Of a stretch of 64,000 nucleotides of DNA, positions 49,141-59,972 are shown piece after piece. Numbering within the stretch: position 1 is the first letter of the stretch; the number at the start of each line of letters is the position of its first letter. Source of the DNA: Gammaproteobacteria bacterium (GTDB lineage Bacteria; Pseudomonadota; Gammaproteobacteria; Steroidobacterales; GCA-2729495); the NCBI GenBank assembly GCA_019454675.1, contig JACFNV010000001.1:471-64470 (forward strand), in the 5' to 3' direction. Made by a program: the position numbers and the translations under genes. The notes beneath the pieces are model-generated. The model was not told the DNA's origin and searched no databases. It saw only the letters and a list, made by a program, of their open reading frames with translations.

Positions 49141-50034
49141 ATGCAGGGCATGAACAAGCCCGCGGCAAGGCTCCATCAGAGCGGCAGGAAACACGAGAGC
49201 GACTGGCCGGGACTGGTCCTCGCCGCCTGCCGACTCATCGAGGCGGCGGATGACGAGGCCAATCTTGGCAGCATCCTGGAAACCCTCGGAGTCGGCGCGG
49301 CCGGCTTGCGCCGCCAGTTCCGCGCGCGGCTCGGCATCACGCCCGGTGCCTACCTGCAGGCGCTGCGCCTGGAGCGCCTGGTGCGTCGCCTCAACCACGA
49401 ACCCGATGTGCTCGCGGCCGTGCTGGGGGCTGGCTTCCAGTCCTCCACGCGCGCCTACGCCACGGTGCGCAAGGCCACCGGCCTGTCCCCCGGCCGGCTG
49501 CGCGACAGCCCGCGCATCGGCTGGTGGCTCGGCCTCTCGGAGCTGGGCTGGATGCTGATGGCGGCAACCCCCGCGGGCATCTGCTGGCTTGCCTTCGGCA
49601 GCTCGGCCCGCGAGCTGCTCGGCGGGCTGGCCGCCGCCTTTCCGCAGGCGCAGTGGATCGACGATAGCGCACGCCTGCACGGCTGGTTCGAGCGGGTGCG
49701 CGAACACCTCCTGTTGCCCGCCGCCGCCCTCGACCTGCCGCTCGACATCCGCGGCACCGCCTTCCAGGCACGGGTCTGGCAGGCGCTGCGCGACATCCCG
49801 CTGGGCGAGACCTGCAGCTATGGCGAGCTGGCGGGACGGCTGGGCAAGCCCAGCGCCACCCGGGCGGTGGCCGCCGCCTGCGGTGCCAACCGGGTGGCGG
49901 TGCTGATTCCCTGCCATCGGGTGATCGGTGCCGATGGCTCGGTCACCGGCTACCGTTGGGGCATCGCCCGCAAGCAGCAGCTCCTCGCACGCGAGCGGGA
50001 GGCCGCCGACGGACAGCCGGCGCAGTCTTCCTAG
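49141..50034 (+). CDS. Methylated-DNA-protein-cysteine methyltransferase with AraC-type HTH (Ada-like, lacks Zn domain)
   Basis: R-F---LGITP--Y, LDIRGTAFQ-RVWQAL, SYG-LA, RAVA-AC-AN, IPCHRVIG. Confidence 0.88.
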   Translation: MQGMNKPAARLHQSGRKHESDWPGLVLAACRLIEAADDEANLGSILETLGVGAAGLRRQFRARLGITPGAYLQALRLERLVRRLNHEPDVLAAVLGAGFQSSTRAYATVRKATGLSPGRLRDSPRIGWWLGLSELGWMLMAATPAGICWLAFGSSARELLGGLAAAFPQAQWIDDSARLHGWFERVREHLLLPAAALDLPLDIRGTAFQARVWQALRDIPLGETCSYGELAGRLGKPSATRAVAAACGANRVAVLIPCHRVIGADGSVTGYRWGIARKQQLLAREREAADGQPAQSS

Positions 50035-52661
50035 AGGGCGAGCTCCACGGCGGGTTCGCGCAGGTTGTAGCGCGAGCTCATCACGTAGCCGTAGGCGCCG
50101 GCATTGGCGATCGCCAGCACATCGCCCTCCCGGCAGGGCGGCAGCAGGCGATCGGCACCCAAGCGATCACCGGTCTCGCAATTCGGCCCGACGACATCCA
50201 CCGTCTCGGCCGGTGGCTCGCCCCAGCGCGAAAGATTGGCGATCTCGTGGTAGGCGCCGTAGAGCGCCGGCCGGATCAGCGAATTCATGCCCGTGCTGAC
50301 CCCGACGTAGTGCATGTCGCCCTTGCCCTTGGTCTGCGTCACCGTGGTGAGCAGCACGCCCGCCTCGGCGATCAGGTAGCGACCCGGCTCCAGCCAGAGC
50401 TCGTAGGCGGGCCAGGCCTTGCGTACCTCCTGCAGGCTGGCACCGAGCGCGGCGAGATCGAGGCGCCTGCCATCGCGCCTCTCGGGCACCCCGAGCCCGC
50501 CGCCGAGGTCGAGGAAGCGCAGGTGCGGGAAGTCGCTGGCCGCGGCACCGAGGATGCGCGCCACCTGCTGCCAGTTGTCGGGGCTGAGGATGCCGCTGCC
50601 GGTATGGGCATGCAGGCCCACCACCCGTGCCCCGGCACGCTCGATCAGCTCGCGGGCCTCGGCCAGCTCGAACAGCGGGATGCCGAACTTGGAGTGCAGG
50701 CCCGCGGTGCGCACGTGCTCGTGGTGCCCGTGCCCCTCGCCGGTGTCGATGCGCAGGAAGATCTCCCTGCCTGCGAACATCCCGGCCCATTCGCGCAGCG
50801 GAAAGATGTTGTCGAGCGTCAGCCACACGCCCTGCTCCAGCCCGAAGGCGTACTCGGCGCGCGGCGCAAAGTTGGGGGTGAAGAGGATGCGCCGGCGGTC
50901 GATGCCGGGAAACAGCTCGAGCACGCGGCGAATCTCGCCCGGCGAAACGCATTCGAAGCCGAGCCCCGCCTCGTGCACCACCTGCAGCACCCGGGGGTTG
51001 CTGTTGGCCTTCATGGCGAACAGCAGCCTGCCGAGGGCGGGCATCGCCTGCAGCCTGGCGATGGCCTCGCGCACGGTCTGCAGGTCGTAGACATAGGCCG
51101 AGGCGTGCTCTTCCGCCAGCGCGATCAGTTCGCGGCGGCGCCTCGCCCACCAGGGCTCGGGCAGGGCCTCGCCATCCGTCCTGCCCTCGCGCAGCTCCTG
51201 CCAGGTGGGGCCGAAGACGGCATCCTCGCGCGTCGGCGGCACCAGCAGTTCATGCAGGGTCTGGATCACCCGGCGCGACTGGCCCTCCTCGACCACGATG
51301 CTCAGGTTGAGGTCGCTGGCCGCCTGGCTGACGAGATGGATGCGCAGCTCCTGGAATGCCTCGAAGGCGGAACCCAGCTTGTGCAGCACCGAGCGTATCT
51401 TCTGCCCGACGAGGCTGACCACCTCGACGTTCTCGATGATTTTCACCCGGCACAGCTTCTCGAGGGATGCGCGCAGGGCGGCCAGCACACCGGCATCCAG
51501 CGCGTTGGCGCCCGGATCCAGGGTCACCGTCACGTTGCTCTCCGAGGTGGAGACCAGGTCGATGGACAGCCCGAGTTCGCTGAAGCAGCCAAAGGCGCTG
51601 GCGAGGAAGCCCGCTTCCTGCCACATGCCCAGCGTTTCCATCGAGACCAGCGTGACGCGGACGCGGCTGGAGATGGCCTTGACCTGTGGCGTGCTGCTGC
51701 CTGGATCACGGCTGACGAGCGTGCCGGGCAGCCGTGGCCGGGTGGTGTCCTTGACCCGCAGCGGGATGGCGTGCCGGCGCAGCGGCGCCAGGCAGCGCGG
51801 ATGCAGCACCGAGCCGCCCATGGAGGCGATTTCCTGCGCCTCCGCATAGCTCAGCACCCGCAGCAGGCGCGCACCATGCACGGTGCGCGGGTTGGCGCTG
51901 AACATGCCGGGCACGTCGGTCCAGATCTCGAGCCCGGCTGCCGCCAGCTTGGCCGCCAGGTAGGCACCCGAGATATCCGAGCCACCACGCCCGAGGATCA
52001 CGGTCTCCCCCGCCTCGTTGCCGGCGATGAAACCCTGGGTCAGCACGACGCCCCGGGCCTCCCGGCAGGCCTGCTGCACCGCCGGGTCGACATCGAATGC
52101 GCAGCGCGCATTGATGAAGCGTGCGCGCAGGGTGGCATGCGGCTGCTCGACGGCGCGCAGCAGGCGGCGCGCATCCAGCCAGGTCGTCTCCAGCCCGCGC
52201 GAACACAGCCAGGCCGCGCCCAGGGTGGTGGACATCAGCTCGCCCATGGCCATGGCACGCGCATGCAGCCGCGGCGTGACCTCGCCGGTGAGGCGCATGC
52301 CGGCAAACAGCTGCGCGAGCTCGGCCAGGTAGCCGCCGATCAGCGCCGGGCCATCGACACCCATTTCACGGGCCAGCTCCAGGTGCGCCGCCTCGATGGC
52401 GGAGAGCTGCTCGTCGACATCCTCGCGGCCGACCCTGGCAAGCGCGTCCTGGATGCGGTTGGAAACCCCCGCCAGCGCCGAGTGGACCACGATCGGCCGG
52501 TATCCGGCGGCGATGCGCTCGACCAGCAGTTCATGGATGCCGGCCCAGTTGCGGGCGCTGGCCACGCTGGTGCCGCCGAACTTGAGCACGATCCACGGGG
52601 CATCGTGCAGCGGCGTGCCGCTCGGCAGGCTGGGAAAGGTGTCGGCATCCAGTGTCGTCAT
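50031..52661 (-). CDS. lysAC: Bifunctional aspartate kinase / diaminopimelate decarboxylase (LysC-LysA fusion)
   Basis: LKFGGTSV, LGRGGSD, WTDVPG, two ACT-like domains, FAMKAN (PLP Lys), HTGSG, DLGGG, EPGRY, GPNCETGD. Confidence 0.94.
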   Translation of the reverse strand: MTTLDADTFPSLPSGTPLHDAPWIVLKFGGTSVASARNWAGIHELLVERIAAGYRPIVVHSALAGVSNRIQDALARVGREDVDEQLSAIEAAHLELAREMGVDGPALIGGYLAELAQLFAGMRLTGEVTPRLHARAMAMGELMSTTLGAAWLCSRGLETTWLDARRLLRAVEQPHATLRARFINARCAFDVDPAVQQACREARGVVLTQGFIAGNEAGETVILGRGGSDISGAYLAAKLAAAGLEIWTDVPGMFSANPRTVHGARLLRVLSYAEAQEIASMGGSVLHPRCLAPLRRHAIPLRVKDTTRPRLPGTLVSRDPGSSTPQVKAISSRVRVTLVSMETLGMWQEAGFLASAFGCFSELGLSIDLVSTSESNVTVTLDPGANALDAGVLAALRASLEKLCRVKIIENVEVVSLVGQKIRSVLHKLGSAFEAFQELRIHLVSQAASDLNLSIVVEEGQSRRVIQTLHELLVPPTREDAVFGPTWQELREGRTDGEALPEPWWARRRRELIALAEEHASAYVYDLQTVREAIARLQAMPALGRLLFAMKANSNPRVLQVVHEAGLGFECVSPGEIRRVLELFPGIDRRRILFTPNFAPRAEYAFGLEQGVWLTLDNIFPLREWAGMFAGREIFLRIDTGEGHGHHEHVRTAGLHSKFGIPLFELAEARELIERAGARVVGLHAHTGSGILSPDNWQQVARILGAAASDFPHLRFLDLGGGLGVPERRDGRRLDLAALGASLQEVRKAWPAYELWLEPGRYLIAEAGVLLTTVTQTKGKGDMHYVGVSTGMNSLIRPALYGAYHEIANLSRWGEPPAETVDVVGPNCETGDRLGADRLLPPCREGDVLAIANAGAYGYVMSSRYNLREPAVELAL

Positions 52662-52707
52662 GGCTCATCTTCCTGTATCGCTGCGGGCCCGGCGCAGGCC
52701 CACATGC

Positions 52708-52741
52708 AAAAAGCCCGCTCCGGTCGTACCGTTGCGGGCTT
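52708..52741 (-). terminator. Attenuator terminator upstream of lysAC
   Basis: Minus strand AAGCCCGC-aa-CGGT-acg-ACCG-ga-GCGGGCTT followed by TTT, about 47 nt before the lysAC ATG. Confidence 0.8.
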
Positions 52742-52773
52742 GGCTTGGGTGGCTTCTGGAACCCGGCCTGCGC

Positions 52774-52857
52774 TCAGGCGCCGGCACCCCCGCAACACGG
52801 TGCCAAGGCCCGGTCGACCTTGCGCTTGGGCATCGGCTGGATGGGGGTGCGGAACAT
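52774..52857 (-). CDS. Putative attenuator leader peptide MFRTPIQPMPKRKVDRALAPCCGGAGA
   Basis: 27-codon uORF ending 32 nt before the terminator; contains sequences complementary to the terminator 5' arm. Confidence 0.65.
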   Translation of the reverse strand: MFRTPIQPMPKRKVDRALAPCCGGAGA

Positions 52858-52865
52858 GGGGCGCA

Positions 52866-52894
52866 AGTAAAACCGAAGCATGCCGGGCGGTCAA
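52866..52894 (-). promoter_or_regulatory. Candidate sigma70 promoter for the lysAC leader
   Basis: TTGACC-17 nt-TTTACT, 8 nt upstream of the leader ATG; -35 overlaps the ilvD stop. Confidence 0.55.
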
Positions 52895-54594
52895 GCGCCC
52901 GGTTCGCCGGTGGTGACCGCCCCCCGCGAGGCCGAGCTGACCAGCTTCGCATACTTGGTCAGGACGCCCCGCTGGACCGCTGCCACCGGGGCGCTCCAGG
53001 CCGCACGGCGCCGCTCGAGCTCGCCATCGGCCACCTTCAGCGTGATGGTGCGCTCCACTGCATCGATGGTGATGGCATCGCCATCCTCCACCAGCGCCAG
53101 CGGGCCGCCGACCGCCGCCTCGGGCGTGACGTGGCCCACCACGAAACCATGGCTGCCACCCGAGAAGCGCCCGTCGGTGATCAGCGCCACCTTGTCGCCG
53201 AGGTTGCGGCCCATGATGGCGGCGGTCGGGCTGAGCATCTCGCGCATGCCGGGGCCGCCCCGGGGCCCCTCGTAGCGGATCACGACCACATCGCCCGCCA
53301 CCACCGTGCCGGCGAGGATTGCCTCGAGCGCCAGCTCCTCCGAGCCGTAGACGCGTGCCTTGCCGGTGAAGCTGAGGCCCTCCTTGCCGGTGATCTTGGC
53401 CACCGCGCCACCGGGGGCGAGGTTGCCGTAGAGCACGACCAGGTGGCTGTCCTTTTTGATCGGGTCATCGAGCCCGTGGATGATGTCCTGGCCCTTGGGG
53501 TAGGGCTGCACGCCGGCCAGGTTCTCGGCCAGCGTCCTGCCGGTGACGGTGAGGCAGTCGCCATGCAGCATGCCGGCATCGAGCAGCATCTTCATCAGCG
53601 GCTGGATGCCGCCGATGGCCACCAGCTCGGACATGGCGTAGCGCCCGCTGGGGCGCAGGTCGGCCAGCACCGGCACCCGCTTGCCGATGCGCGTGAAGTC
53701 ATCGAGGCCAAGCTCGATGCCCGCCTCGTGGGCGATCGCCAGCAGGTGCAGCACCGCGTTGGTGGAACCGCCGAGCGCGATCACCAACGTGATGGCATTT
53801 TCGAAGGCCTTGCGGCTGAGGATGTCCGATGGGCGGATGCCCCGGCGCAGGAGTTCGACCACCGCTGCCCCGGCACGCCGGCAATCCTCGTGCTTGTGGC
53901 TGGAGACGGCCTCCTGCGCCGAACTATCGGGCAGCGAGAGCCCCAGCGCCTCGATGGCCGAGGCCATGGTGTTGGCGGTGTACATGCCGCCGCAGGAGCC
54001 CGGCCCCGGGATGGCCGTGCGCTCCACATCGAGCAGCTGCGCCTCGCTCATGCAGTCGCAGGCCACCGCACCGACCGCCTCGAAGACCGAGACGATGTCG
54101 CGGCGCTGCGCACCCGGCTTGATGGTGCCGCCATAGACGAACACCGAGGGGCGATCGAGACGCACCATGGCCATCACGCAGGCGGGCATGTTCTTGTCGC
54201 AGCCGCCGATGGTGACGAAGCCGTCGAAGCCCTCGGCACCCACCACGGTCTCGATGGAATCGGCGATCACCTCGCGCGACACCAGCGAGTAGCGCATGCC
54301 GGGCGTGCCCATCGAGATGCCATCGGAAACGGTGATGGTGTTGAAGATCACCGCCTTGCCGCCCGCCTCGTCCGCCCCGCGGGCAGCCTCCCGGGCCAGC
54401 GTGTCGATGTGCATGTTGCAGGGCGTCACCATGCTCCAGGTCGAGGCGATGCCGATCTGGCTCTTCTTGAAATCTGCCTCGGTGAAGCCTACCGCCCGCA
54501 GCATGGCCCGGCTGGGGGCCTGGGCAACGCCATCGACGACCAAGCTGGAATAGCGGCGCTCTTCGCTGCCCGCCTTGGGATCCTTGTCAGACAT
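52891..54594 (-). CDS. ilvD: Dihydroxy-acid dehydratase
   Basis: [72 protein letters not shown]. Confidence 0.96.
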
Positions 54595-54688
54595 GTCTTC
54601 GTTCCCGGGATTGCCGGCCGGATGCGCAATGACCCGGCCACGCGTGGAAAAGGGCACAGTTTAGCACCGCAGTGGCGGCACCCGGCCC

Positions 54689-59895: not shown

Positions 59896-59972
<77 letters not shown>

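Follow-up and report, generated by a model that had tools for sequence, protein, structure and literature searches.

The window analyzed here is a stretch of 64,000 nucleotides (contig JACFNV010000001.1) from the genome of an uncultured gammaproteobacterium that is present in activated-sludge data sets. On its minus strand, the gene ilvD is followed by lysAC, whose product, a bifunctional aspartate kinase and diaminopimelate decarboxylase, catalyzes the first and last steps of lysine synthesis (1147 bits against NCBIfam NF006515, for which the cut-off is 802). The two genes are separated by 229 nt that contain a leader with a promoter-like motif, a short upstream open reading frame (uORF), and an intrinsic terminator (Table 1). 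An earlier note on this DNA had listed promoter hexamers, an ATG, the uORF, complementary pairs, a hairpin, and a U-run on the minus strand, and all of these motifs were found where it had placed them. Our analysis indicates that the leader is very probably a terminator/antiterminator attenuator of lysAC.

The leader was compared with the regions upstream of lysAC in other genomes. These loci were collected by a protein-guided scan of species-representative genomes (L001-L080), by a search of metagenome contigs for exact matches to the terminator pattern (L081-L110), and, for the further loci, by picking contigs that encode LysAC homologues by identity alone. The leader architecture was found upstream of lysAC in about 25 loci from about 14 lineages of uncultured Gammaproteobacteria, with LysAC proteins that are 59-92% identical to that of the window (group 1: the window, L001, L003, L009, L012, L061, L082, L084, L086-L089, L092, L096, L098-L100, L103, L104, L109, L111, L113, L114, and L119, with L117 as a variant). 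All matches of the terminator-pattern scan that have the uORF architecture precede lysAC, and the rest are unrelated terminators after other genes. A second type of leader (group 2) occurs at 13 more distant lysAC loci and is described in the last section. One of the group-1 carriers, L012 (contig CAVQPV010000057.1), belongs to a metagenome-assembled genome (MAG) labelled Pirellulaceae; its ilvD-leader-lysAC region is of the gammaproteobacterial type, its LysAC is 77% identical to that of the window, and the label looks like a binning error.

Table 1. Features of the ilvD-lysAC region in the window, and positions of group-2 leaders within their own loci
Feature	Position	Strand	Description
ilvD	52891..54657	-	Dihydroxy-acid dehydratase; upstream of leader; NCBIfam NF002068 / TIGR00110
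-35-like hexamer	52889..52894	-	TTGACC; overlaps ilvD stop TGA (52893-52891)
-10-like element	52864..52871	-	TTTACT at 52871-52866 (17-nt spacer) or TACTTG at 52869-52864 (19-nt spacer, with TA)
uORF	52774..52857	-	27 codons plus TGA (52776-52774); MFRTPIQPMPKRKVDRALAPCCGGAGA; no Shine-Dalgarno sequence, probably leaderless
Second arm mimic	52843..52850	-	GCACCCCC, codons 3-5; pairs with GGGGGTGC (RNA GGGGGUGC) at 52791-52784
Segment 1 (conserved anti-antiterminator)	52820..52830	-	CCC-AAG-CGCAA; mimic of arm CCCGCAA; pairs with UUGCGGGG
Putative regulatory codons	52819..52827	-	AAG CGC AAG (Lys11 Arg12 Lys13)
Segment 2 (antiterminator 5' strand)	52784..52796	-	GUUGCGGGGGUGC, in uORF codons 21-25
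Intrinsic terminator (segments 3:4)	52708..52741	-	AAGCCCGC-AA-CGGU-acg-ACCG-GA-GCGGGCUU plus U-run
lysAC Shine-Dalgarno sequence	52669..52674	-	AGGAAG; 7 nt 5' of ATG (52661)
lysAC	50031..52661	-	Bifunctional aspartate kinase / diaminopimelate decarboxylase; 876 aa; NCBIfam NF006515
Group-2 leader, L029	2200-2411		
Group-2 leader, L034	2186-2398		
Group-2 leader, L039	2244-2457		
Group-2 leader, L040	2289-2469		
Group-2 leader, L042	2194-2407		
Group-2 leader, L043	2251-2463		
Group-2 leader, L044	2192-2405		
Group-2 leader, L054	2213-2400		
Group-2 leader, L057	2194-2407		
Group-2 leader, L069	2249-2463		
Group-2 leader, L070	2191-2404		

Conserved elements of the lysAC leader

The 5' end of the leader is marked by a promoter-like pattern, TTGAC-N17-T(T/C)TACT (or TTAACT), that is kept with a fixed 17-nt spacing in all 34 leaders of groups 1 and 2 (TTGAC itself is invariant in 34/34). 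This pattern occurs once in the 64 kb of the window, whereas none was expected on the basis of 100 shuffles. In the window, 8 nt without a GGAG-like motif (TGCGCCCC) lie between TTTACT and the ATG at 52857, and a Shine-Dalgarno sequence precedes the uORF in none of the 34 leaders. The ATG follows the -10 motif by 6-8 nt in all leaders except L117, where it is found 25 nt after TTAACT. If the -10 element is read as TACTTG instead, a 6-nt GC-rich discriminator ends exactly at the A of the ATG. With either register, the start of the transcript would thus fall at the AUG or within ~2 nt of it. From this conservation we infer that TTGAC-N17-TnTACT serves as a promoter, and its conserved spacing to the ATG suggests that the uORF is probably leaderless.

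The terminator hairpin (52741-52711; -21.2 kcal/mol) consists of an 8-bp stem and, beyond an A-A/G-A internal loop, an upper stem of 4 bp (CGGU/ACCG), and a U5 run 3' of the hairpin ends at 52708. A terminator had already been proposed at this position and is indeed present, but the hairpin is longer than was described. The terminator pattern is found once in 64 kb, compared to an expectation of zero from 100 shuffles, and the terminator is kept in all leader-carrying relatives with an invariant stem and an upper stem that covaries in L061 (GGUC/GACC). The leader as a whole folds more stably than 200 of 200 shuffles (z = -3.83). A consensus scan of the window for promoters and terminators called neither at the leader. 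The promoter was missed because TTTACT carries no A at position 2 of the -10 element, and the terminator was missed because the 15-nt inner part of its hairpin (4-bp stem plus 3-nt loop) exceeds the 8-nt loop limit. Between the terminator and the lysAC Shine-Dalgarno sequence, the window has a further GC hairpin, GGGCC-UGCGCC-GGGCCC (52685-52701, minus strand); at this site, L001 has a different hairpin and L003 has none.

Every leader carries a UGCGGG-like strand that is complementary to the 5' arm of the terminator. This strand lies at uORF nt 36-85, within or just after the last uORF codons. In the window, it is represented by segment 2, in which GTTGCGGG (52796-52789; GUUGCGGG in RNA) is complementary to CCCGCAAC (52738-52731). 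The closest relative, L111 (LysAC 92% identical), has CCACGG in place of CAACGG in the arm, and a matching GGCGGGC has newly appeared in its uORF. The comparison of relatives thus supports the mutually exclusive terminator/antiterminator logic that had been proposed from the window, with the antiterminator strand near the 3' end of the uORF.

A third strand takes part in this scheme. Applied to nine leaders of the window's clade, RNAalifold predicts one conserved helix besides the terminator, in which C-Y-C and CGCAA of the Lys-Arg-Lys (K-R-K) codons pair with UUGCG-GGG of segment 2 (pairs 28-30:71-73 and 34-38:66-70) and the first AAG is bulged. To judge by its sequence, the K-R-K stretch repeats the terminator arm (CCCGCAA), into which a lysine codon has been inserted. 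Because UUGCGGGG is complementary to both the arm and this mimic, the Lys codons lie within the anti-antiterminator. The Arg codon is conserved because its CGC pairs with GCG of segment 2. Among variants of this helix, a G-U pair is retained in L088, where CGC has become UGC, and CGCAA:UUGCG of the window is replaced by CGCAU:AUGCG in L119. In a duplex search, the Lys/Arg stretch ranked first or second as a partner for segment 2 in most leaders, including those of the L082, L086, L098, L100, and L119 lineages.

The earlier note had assigned the role of segment 1 to GCACCCCC. Its complementarity to GGGGGTGC is real, and this pairing belongs to the minimum-energy fold of the window, but the conserved partner of segment 2 is the K-R-K stretch at 52830-52820, and GCACCCCC is confined to the nearest relatives. 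Such a second mimic is seen as C-rich or CCCGCGA-like tracts in codons 3-6 of L001, L088, L111, L003, and L113 and is not a family-wide feature.

These elements bear on the simplest account of the region, according to which there is no regulation at all: the hairpin would be the terminator of ilvD, lysAC would have an ordinary promoter before or after it, and the uORF and the complementarities would be by-products of GC-rich sequence. The terminator is indeed located downstream of ilvD, RNA contigs cross ilvD into the leader, and many relatives have ilvD directly adjoining lysAC. However, the terminator lies 170 nt after the ilvD stop and 3' of both the promoter-like motif and the uORF, and a transcript from this conserved promoter-like motif must therefore cross it. 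Furthermore, conservation over about 14 lineages extends to the ATG and its frame, to the Lys codon, and to both complementarities of segment 2. We consider an absence of regulation to be very unlikely.

The uORF and its lysine codons

The uORF begins with ATG in 24 of the 25 group-1 leaders and with GTG in the remaining one (L088). Its frame is open over 19-37 codons in 25/25, and the other two frames over the same stretch contain 26 and 18 stops. For the window alone, which has 72% GC, an open frame of 27 codons is unremarkable (chance ~0.67), and the case for translation therefore rests on the comparison with relatives. Over 11 well-separated lineages, the chance of finding the frame open is ~3e-5, a rough value that is the product of per-lineage shuffle chances of 0.25-0.67 for lineages that are related to each other.

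The manner in which the leaders differ is also informative. Insertions and deletions between uORFs are multiples of three, such that the distance from the ATG to UGCGGG is 63, 66, or 69 nt. Although their lengths differ by 3 or 6 nt, 11 leaders keep UGCGGG in register, where it encodes Cys-Gly. At codon 28, the stop is TGA in the window and L111, TAA in L001 and L092, and TAG in L088, and in the L082 clade the stop alternates between TAA and TGA. The uORF of L114 stops one codon before the G-rich strand, which would still be inside the footprint of a terminating ribosome. On this comparison of relatives, the small frame looks translated. A 95-aa open reading frame on the minus strand (52952-52665), in a frame other than that of the uORF, was taken as spurious because the relatives have stops in the non-uORF frames.

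A Lys codon stands directly 5' of CGN or TGC in 23 of the 25 uORFs. This Lys codon is AAG in GC-rich leaders and AAA in others, a third-position variation of the kind that selection at the codon level predicts. In total, the uORFs contain 62 Lys residues compared to ~19 expected from base composition (~3-fold). In L111, Lys11 has been replaced by Arg and Arg16 by Lys, and two Lys codons are retained. Furthermore, the conserved helix leaves the first AAG unpaired, and pairing thus does not account for its conservation. The suggestion that the leader is multivalent and senses Met, Thr, Ile, and Asp in addition to Lys is not supported: these other residues are not conserved, and Thr, Ile, and Asp are not enriched either.

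It could be argued that the attenuator depends on translation without being specific for lysine, and that it responds to translation capacity, to the supply of Arg or Met, or to a slow basic nascent peptide. Arg is the commonest uORF residue (13.8%), Met accounts for ~5.7% of residues (several-fold over the expectation from composition), and some uORFs have one Lys codon or none. The sequences K-R-K, K-R-R, and K-C-K also fit the +X+ pattern, which slows ribosomes in the presence of macrolides (PMC12583479). However, the Arg codon is accounted for by the pairing of segment 2. The position of Met is not conserved in the window's clade, and the uORFs of L012, L089, L113, and L114 have no internal Met. 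Only Lys is conserved in position, is turned over in a compensatory manner (L111), and is unexplained by pairing, and the product of the regulated gene is the enzyme for the first and last steps in the synthesis of this amino acid. In our view, an attenuator that depends on translation without specifically reading lysine is therefore improbable. Likewise, a macrolide-type +X+ stalling motif was rejected as a candidate, since K-R-K fits the pattern but the motif is not universal and has no link to the regulated gene.

Two further features of the uORF codons were observed. First, in-frame AUG codons are enriched in the uORFs of L082, L096, L099, L104, L109, L119, L009, L086, L100, and L103, often as AUG-AAA-CGC; RNA palindromes (CAUG), internal starts, and methionine sensing are each possible reasons. 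Second, codons 6-8 of the L119 uORF (AGA AAA AAG) include A-AAA-AAG, the classical slippery heptamer of the dnaX -1 frameshift, which is probably a coincidence of stacked Lys codons.

A model for lysine-dependent read-through into lysAC

We favor, with a probability of about 0.6, the interpretation that the attenuator is ribosome-mediated and reads lysine codons, and thereby responds to charged tRNA-Lys. From the sequence elements, their complementarity, and their conservation, we infer a transcript start, translation of the uORF, ribosome stalling, and a response to lysine as follows. Transcription from TTGAC-N17-TnTACT would begin at or within ~2 nt of the AUG, and the 27-codon uORF would be translated as a leaderless frame. 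Segment 2 (GUUGCGGGG, codons 21-23) could then pair either with the K-R-K mimic CCC-AAG-CGCAA or with the true terminator arm (AGCCCGCAAC), and in the window and its closest relatives GCACCCCC (codons 3-5) would offer a second upstream mimic for segment 2. When lysine is sufficient, the ribosome would reach the stop codon and cover or pass segment 2, the terminator would form, and transcripts would end near 52708. In untranslated RNA, segment 1 would hold segment 2, and the terminator would form as well. When Lys-tRNA is scarce, the ribosome would stall with AAG in its A site and sit on segment 1. Segment 2, ~25-30 nt downstream of the stall, would then be free to pair with the emerging arm, and the polymerase would read into lysAC.

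To examine the alternative structures, the leader was folded as nascent RNA, before the 3' arm of the terminator exists, with or without a ribosome footprint. For the window, the helix between segments 1 and 2 (1:2) is predicted to form in the nascent RNA without a ribosome, with the terminator arm left free. With a ribosome on Lys13, the antiterminator between segments 2 and 3 (2:3) that the earlier note had proposed is predicted instead, and with a ribosome on Lys11 the arm is predicted to pair with GGGCCUUGGC (codons 16-19). Similar switching behavior is predicted for L003, L012, L082, L086, L087, L089, L096, and L109. An equilibrium folding model with a ribosome footprint was also tried and was set aside in favor of the nascent-RNA folding, since the terminator persists in it and the model is uninformative.

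Several observations weigh against lysine-dependent attenuation. With regard to structure, equilibrium folding with a ribosome footprint leaves the terminator intact in almost all cases. Because the terminator wins at equilibrium, the choice made by the switch must be kinetic, as it is in classical attenuators. In addition, the free RNAs of L009, L061, L084, and L098 are already predicted to form the antiterminator. The duplexes between segment 2 and the arm beat shuffles only modestly in this GC-rich RNA (mean z of -1.3; z is below 0 for 24 of the 25 leaders), and the 1:2 helix shows no double compensatory change inside the window's own clade. The absence from TTTACT of the near-universal A at position 2 of the -10 element is a real weakness of the promoter assignment. 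Moreover, Lys codons are few: the window has two, L001, L092, and L109 have one each, and the variant L117 has none.

The available RNA data belong on the same side. In 12 metatranscriptome runs, assembled contigs of flat depth extend unbroken across ilvD, the leader, and lysAC. These contigs show only that RNA libraries (or residual DNA) include the region. Transcript ends, whether 5' at 52857 or 3' at 52708, are not visible in them, and they are compatible with read-through from ilvD. The lysine-codon model itself predicts termination on untranslated read-through RNA from ilvD, and the hairpin would therefore double as the ilvD terminator.

The distribution of the leader is also uneven. Among relatives whose LysAC is 60-92% identical, roughly one in two is without it. 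In these leader-free loci, ilvD and lysAC are 13-45 nt apart with nothing between them (L002, L004, L006-L008, L112, L115, L116, L118, and others); L010, L011, and L013-L016 are further loci without the leader. The order ilvD-lysAC on the same strand is found in nearly all relatives, with or without the leader. This patchy occurrence within a fixed gene pair indicates that the attenuator has been gained or lost repeatedly. The variant L117 departs from the pattern in another way. Its leader, ~240 nt upstream of lysAC at 701, retains the promoter motif, the antiterminator strand, and the terminator. However, its ATG lies 18 nt away from the usual place, its 20-codon uORF (MPEDRGWARGPQRRAGLLRME) has no Lys, and the K-R stretch is not in frame. 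The L117 leader may be a decayed or rewired copy.

Known systems and the group-2 leaders

By its predicted mechanism, the lysAC leader is to be filed with the trp/his/leu/thr class of attenuators, which it would match functionally point by point. The enterobacterial attenuators used for this comparison were trpL, hisL, leuL, thrL, ilvL, and pheL (Rfam RF00513, RF00514, RF00512, and RF00506). Both kinds of leader have codons for the end product in a short uORF inside segment 1, exclusive 1:2, 2:3, and 3:4 hairpins, and an intrinsic terminator ahead of the structural gene, and the placement of the Lys codons within the anti-antiterminator has its counterpart in the regulatory codons of the trp and his attenuators. 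The lysAC leader differs in the amino acid (lysine), in its target (lysAC), and in having only 1-5 regulatory codons instead of a run. It also lacks a Shine-Dalgarno sequence, is apparently leaderless, and has two copies of the terminator-arm mimic. There is no sequence relation to the enterobacterial leaders and no membership in their Rfam models.

Lysine itself has a reported precedent in this class. Leader-peptide attenuation is said to control the lysine gene cluster of the alpha-aminoadipate pathway in Thermus thermophilus, where Lys codons in a leader peptide reportedly act on lysine-biosynthesis genes through a terminator/antiterminator choice. The Thermus case differs from ours in phylum, in pathway (alpha-aminoadipate versus diaminopimelate), and in the genes that are regulated. 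The earlier note had regarded attenuation of this kind as undescribed for lysAC. We found no description of a lysC or lysAC leader peptide in the open literature, but, given the Thermus cluster, lysine attenuation by a leader peptide would not be new as such.

Leaderless mRNAs are common in Actinobacteria. In mycobacteria, leaderless polycysteine uORFs act as amino-acid sensors (bioRxiv 10.1101/834739), and they share with the lysAC leader a uORF at the 5' end of the transcript (a position predicted here from promoter spacing) that contains codons for the amino acid of the downstream operon. In contrast to these actinobacterial leader peptides, the lysAC leader belongs to a gammaproteobacterial host and has a classical intrinsic terminator as its output. 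If its start is truly leaderless, then Gammaproteobacteria would also use uORFs with a 5'-terminal AUG as sensors.

Control of aspartokinase by lysine is known from textbooks in the form of feedback inhibition and the lysine riboswitch. The latter (L box, RF00168) controls lysC in Firmicutes and Enterobacteria. The lysAC leader shares with it the regulated function (aspartokinase and lysine supply) and the output (premature termination or not), but it is not long enough, nor sufficiently conserved beyond the pairing strands, to be that five-helix aptamer. If our interpretation is correct, lysine-codon attenuation would join feedback inhibition and the riboswitch as a third, independent way for lysine to control aspartokinase. 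It would also be an alternative to the lysine riboswitch and, in Proteobacteria, the first case in which the diaminopimelate pathway is attenuated by a ribosome that reads lysine codons. As a patchy element in a fixed ilvD-lysAC pair, with segments that are copies of the terminator arm, it would make a well-defined system in which to follow the gain, loss, and rebuilding of attenuators. Its practical value would be modest and would lie in the annotation of intergenic regions in wastewater and sediment MAGs and in a compact lysine-responsive part for synthetic biology.

Searches against Rfam covered the whole window, the leader at E = 10, 19 related loci, and one group-2 leader. No family reached its threshold for the leader, and only chance-level matches were obtained (Trp_leader, M23, a CRISPR repeat, and L10_leader). 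The best of these, Trp_leader with 17.5 bits (E = 0.77) against a gathering score of 41, is driven by the layout of a hairpin plus a terminator. Two known regulators of this kind were considered and rejected: the five-helix aptamer of the lysine riboswitch (RF00168) gave no match in the window or the 19 related loci, even at E = 10, and the same was true of the T-box leader (RF00230) in the window and related loci. The group-2 leader likewise had no Rfam match.

Group-2 leaders were found at loci mostly labelled Woeseiaceae (L029, L034, L039, L040, L042-L044, L054, L057, L060, and L068-L070). They span ~180 nt and have the same promoter motif and ATG spacing as the leader of the window, followed by a 39-codon frame (e.g., MIFTATHVKCQLIDSIDMEKHLKYMARQRRVGANGNCTG). 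One strand of this leader, GCGUGGGUG, has two complementary partners, an upstream CACCCACGU and the terminator arm AACCCGC. An A-rich unpaired loop contains 2-3 Lys codons, and the terminator ends in U9. The helix formed by CACCCACGU and GCGUGGGUG shows compensatory changes, and there are also a covarying AUCGA/UCGAU hairpin and a second hairpin domain. Sequence conservation is far above that of group 1. In L054, the ATG is displaced and a 1-nt deletion in an A-run ends the frame after 19 codons (ending in GVKNT), and the downstream RNA is still conserved, with differences in the 5' strand of helix P1 limited to changes that keep G-U pairs. The group-2 leader may represent the same type of attenuator within a smaller phylogenetic span; alternatively, an aptamer may be part of it.

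This possible aptamer is the main reason to keep in mind a switch made of RNA alone, that is, a riboswitch or a leader bound by a protein or a tRNA, in which a ligand stabilizes the 1:2 helix and the open frame is incidental. Such a switch would account for the strong structure of the leader, for the high nucleotide conservation and compensatory helix changes in group 2 (including L054 with its broken frame), and for the CGC of the K-R motif, which is explained by pairing; moreover, an open frame as long as that of the window is not rare in sequence with 70% GC. It is at odds with the Rfam results, in which no aptamer was matched. Unlike an aptamer, group-1 leaders have almost no common sequence beyond the paired strands and the Lys codon. 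The conservation of the frame, of the start position, of indels in threes, and of a stop that is swapped among codons also speaks against it, as does a conserved AAR that is unpaired. Overall, we judge an RNA-only switch to be unlikely.

With regard to lysine-codon attenuation, the chances are about even that these leaders, including the 39-codon Woeseiaceae type, make up a new family of leaderless lysine-sensing attenuators of lysAC in uncultured Gammaproteobacteria, in which the anti-antiterminator is a copy of the terminator arm that carries Lys codons.

The Rfam searches also recovered elements elsewhere. The sole match at the gathering score in the window is a tRNA gene (59899-59972, minus strand; RF00005, 59.2 bits). 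In Steroidobacteraceae loci, ZMP/ZTP riboswitch aptamers (RF01750, 46-55 bits) are located ~2.3 kb upstream of lysAC (L018:121-215, L020:134-228, and L021:1-87, minus strand) and are unrelated to the leader.

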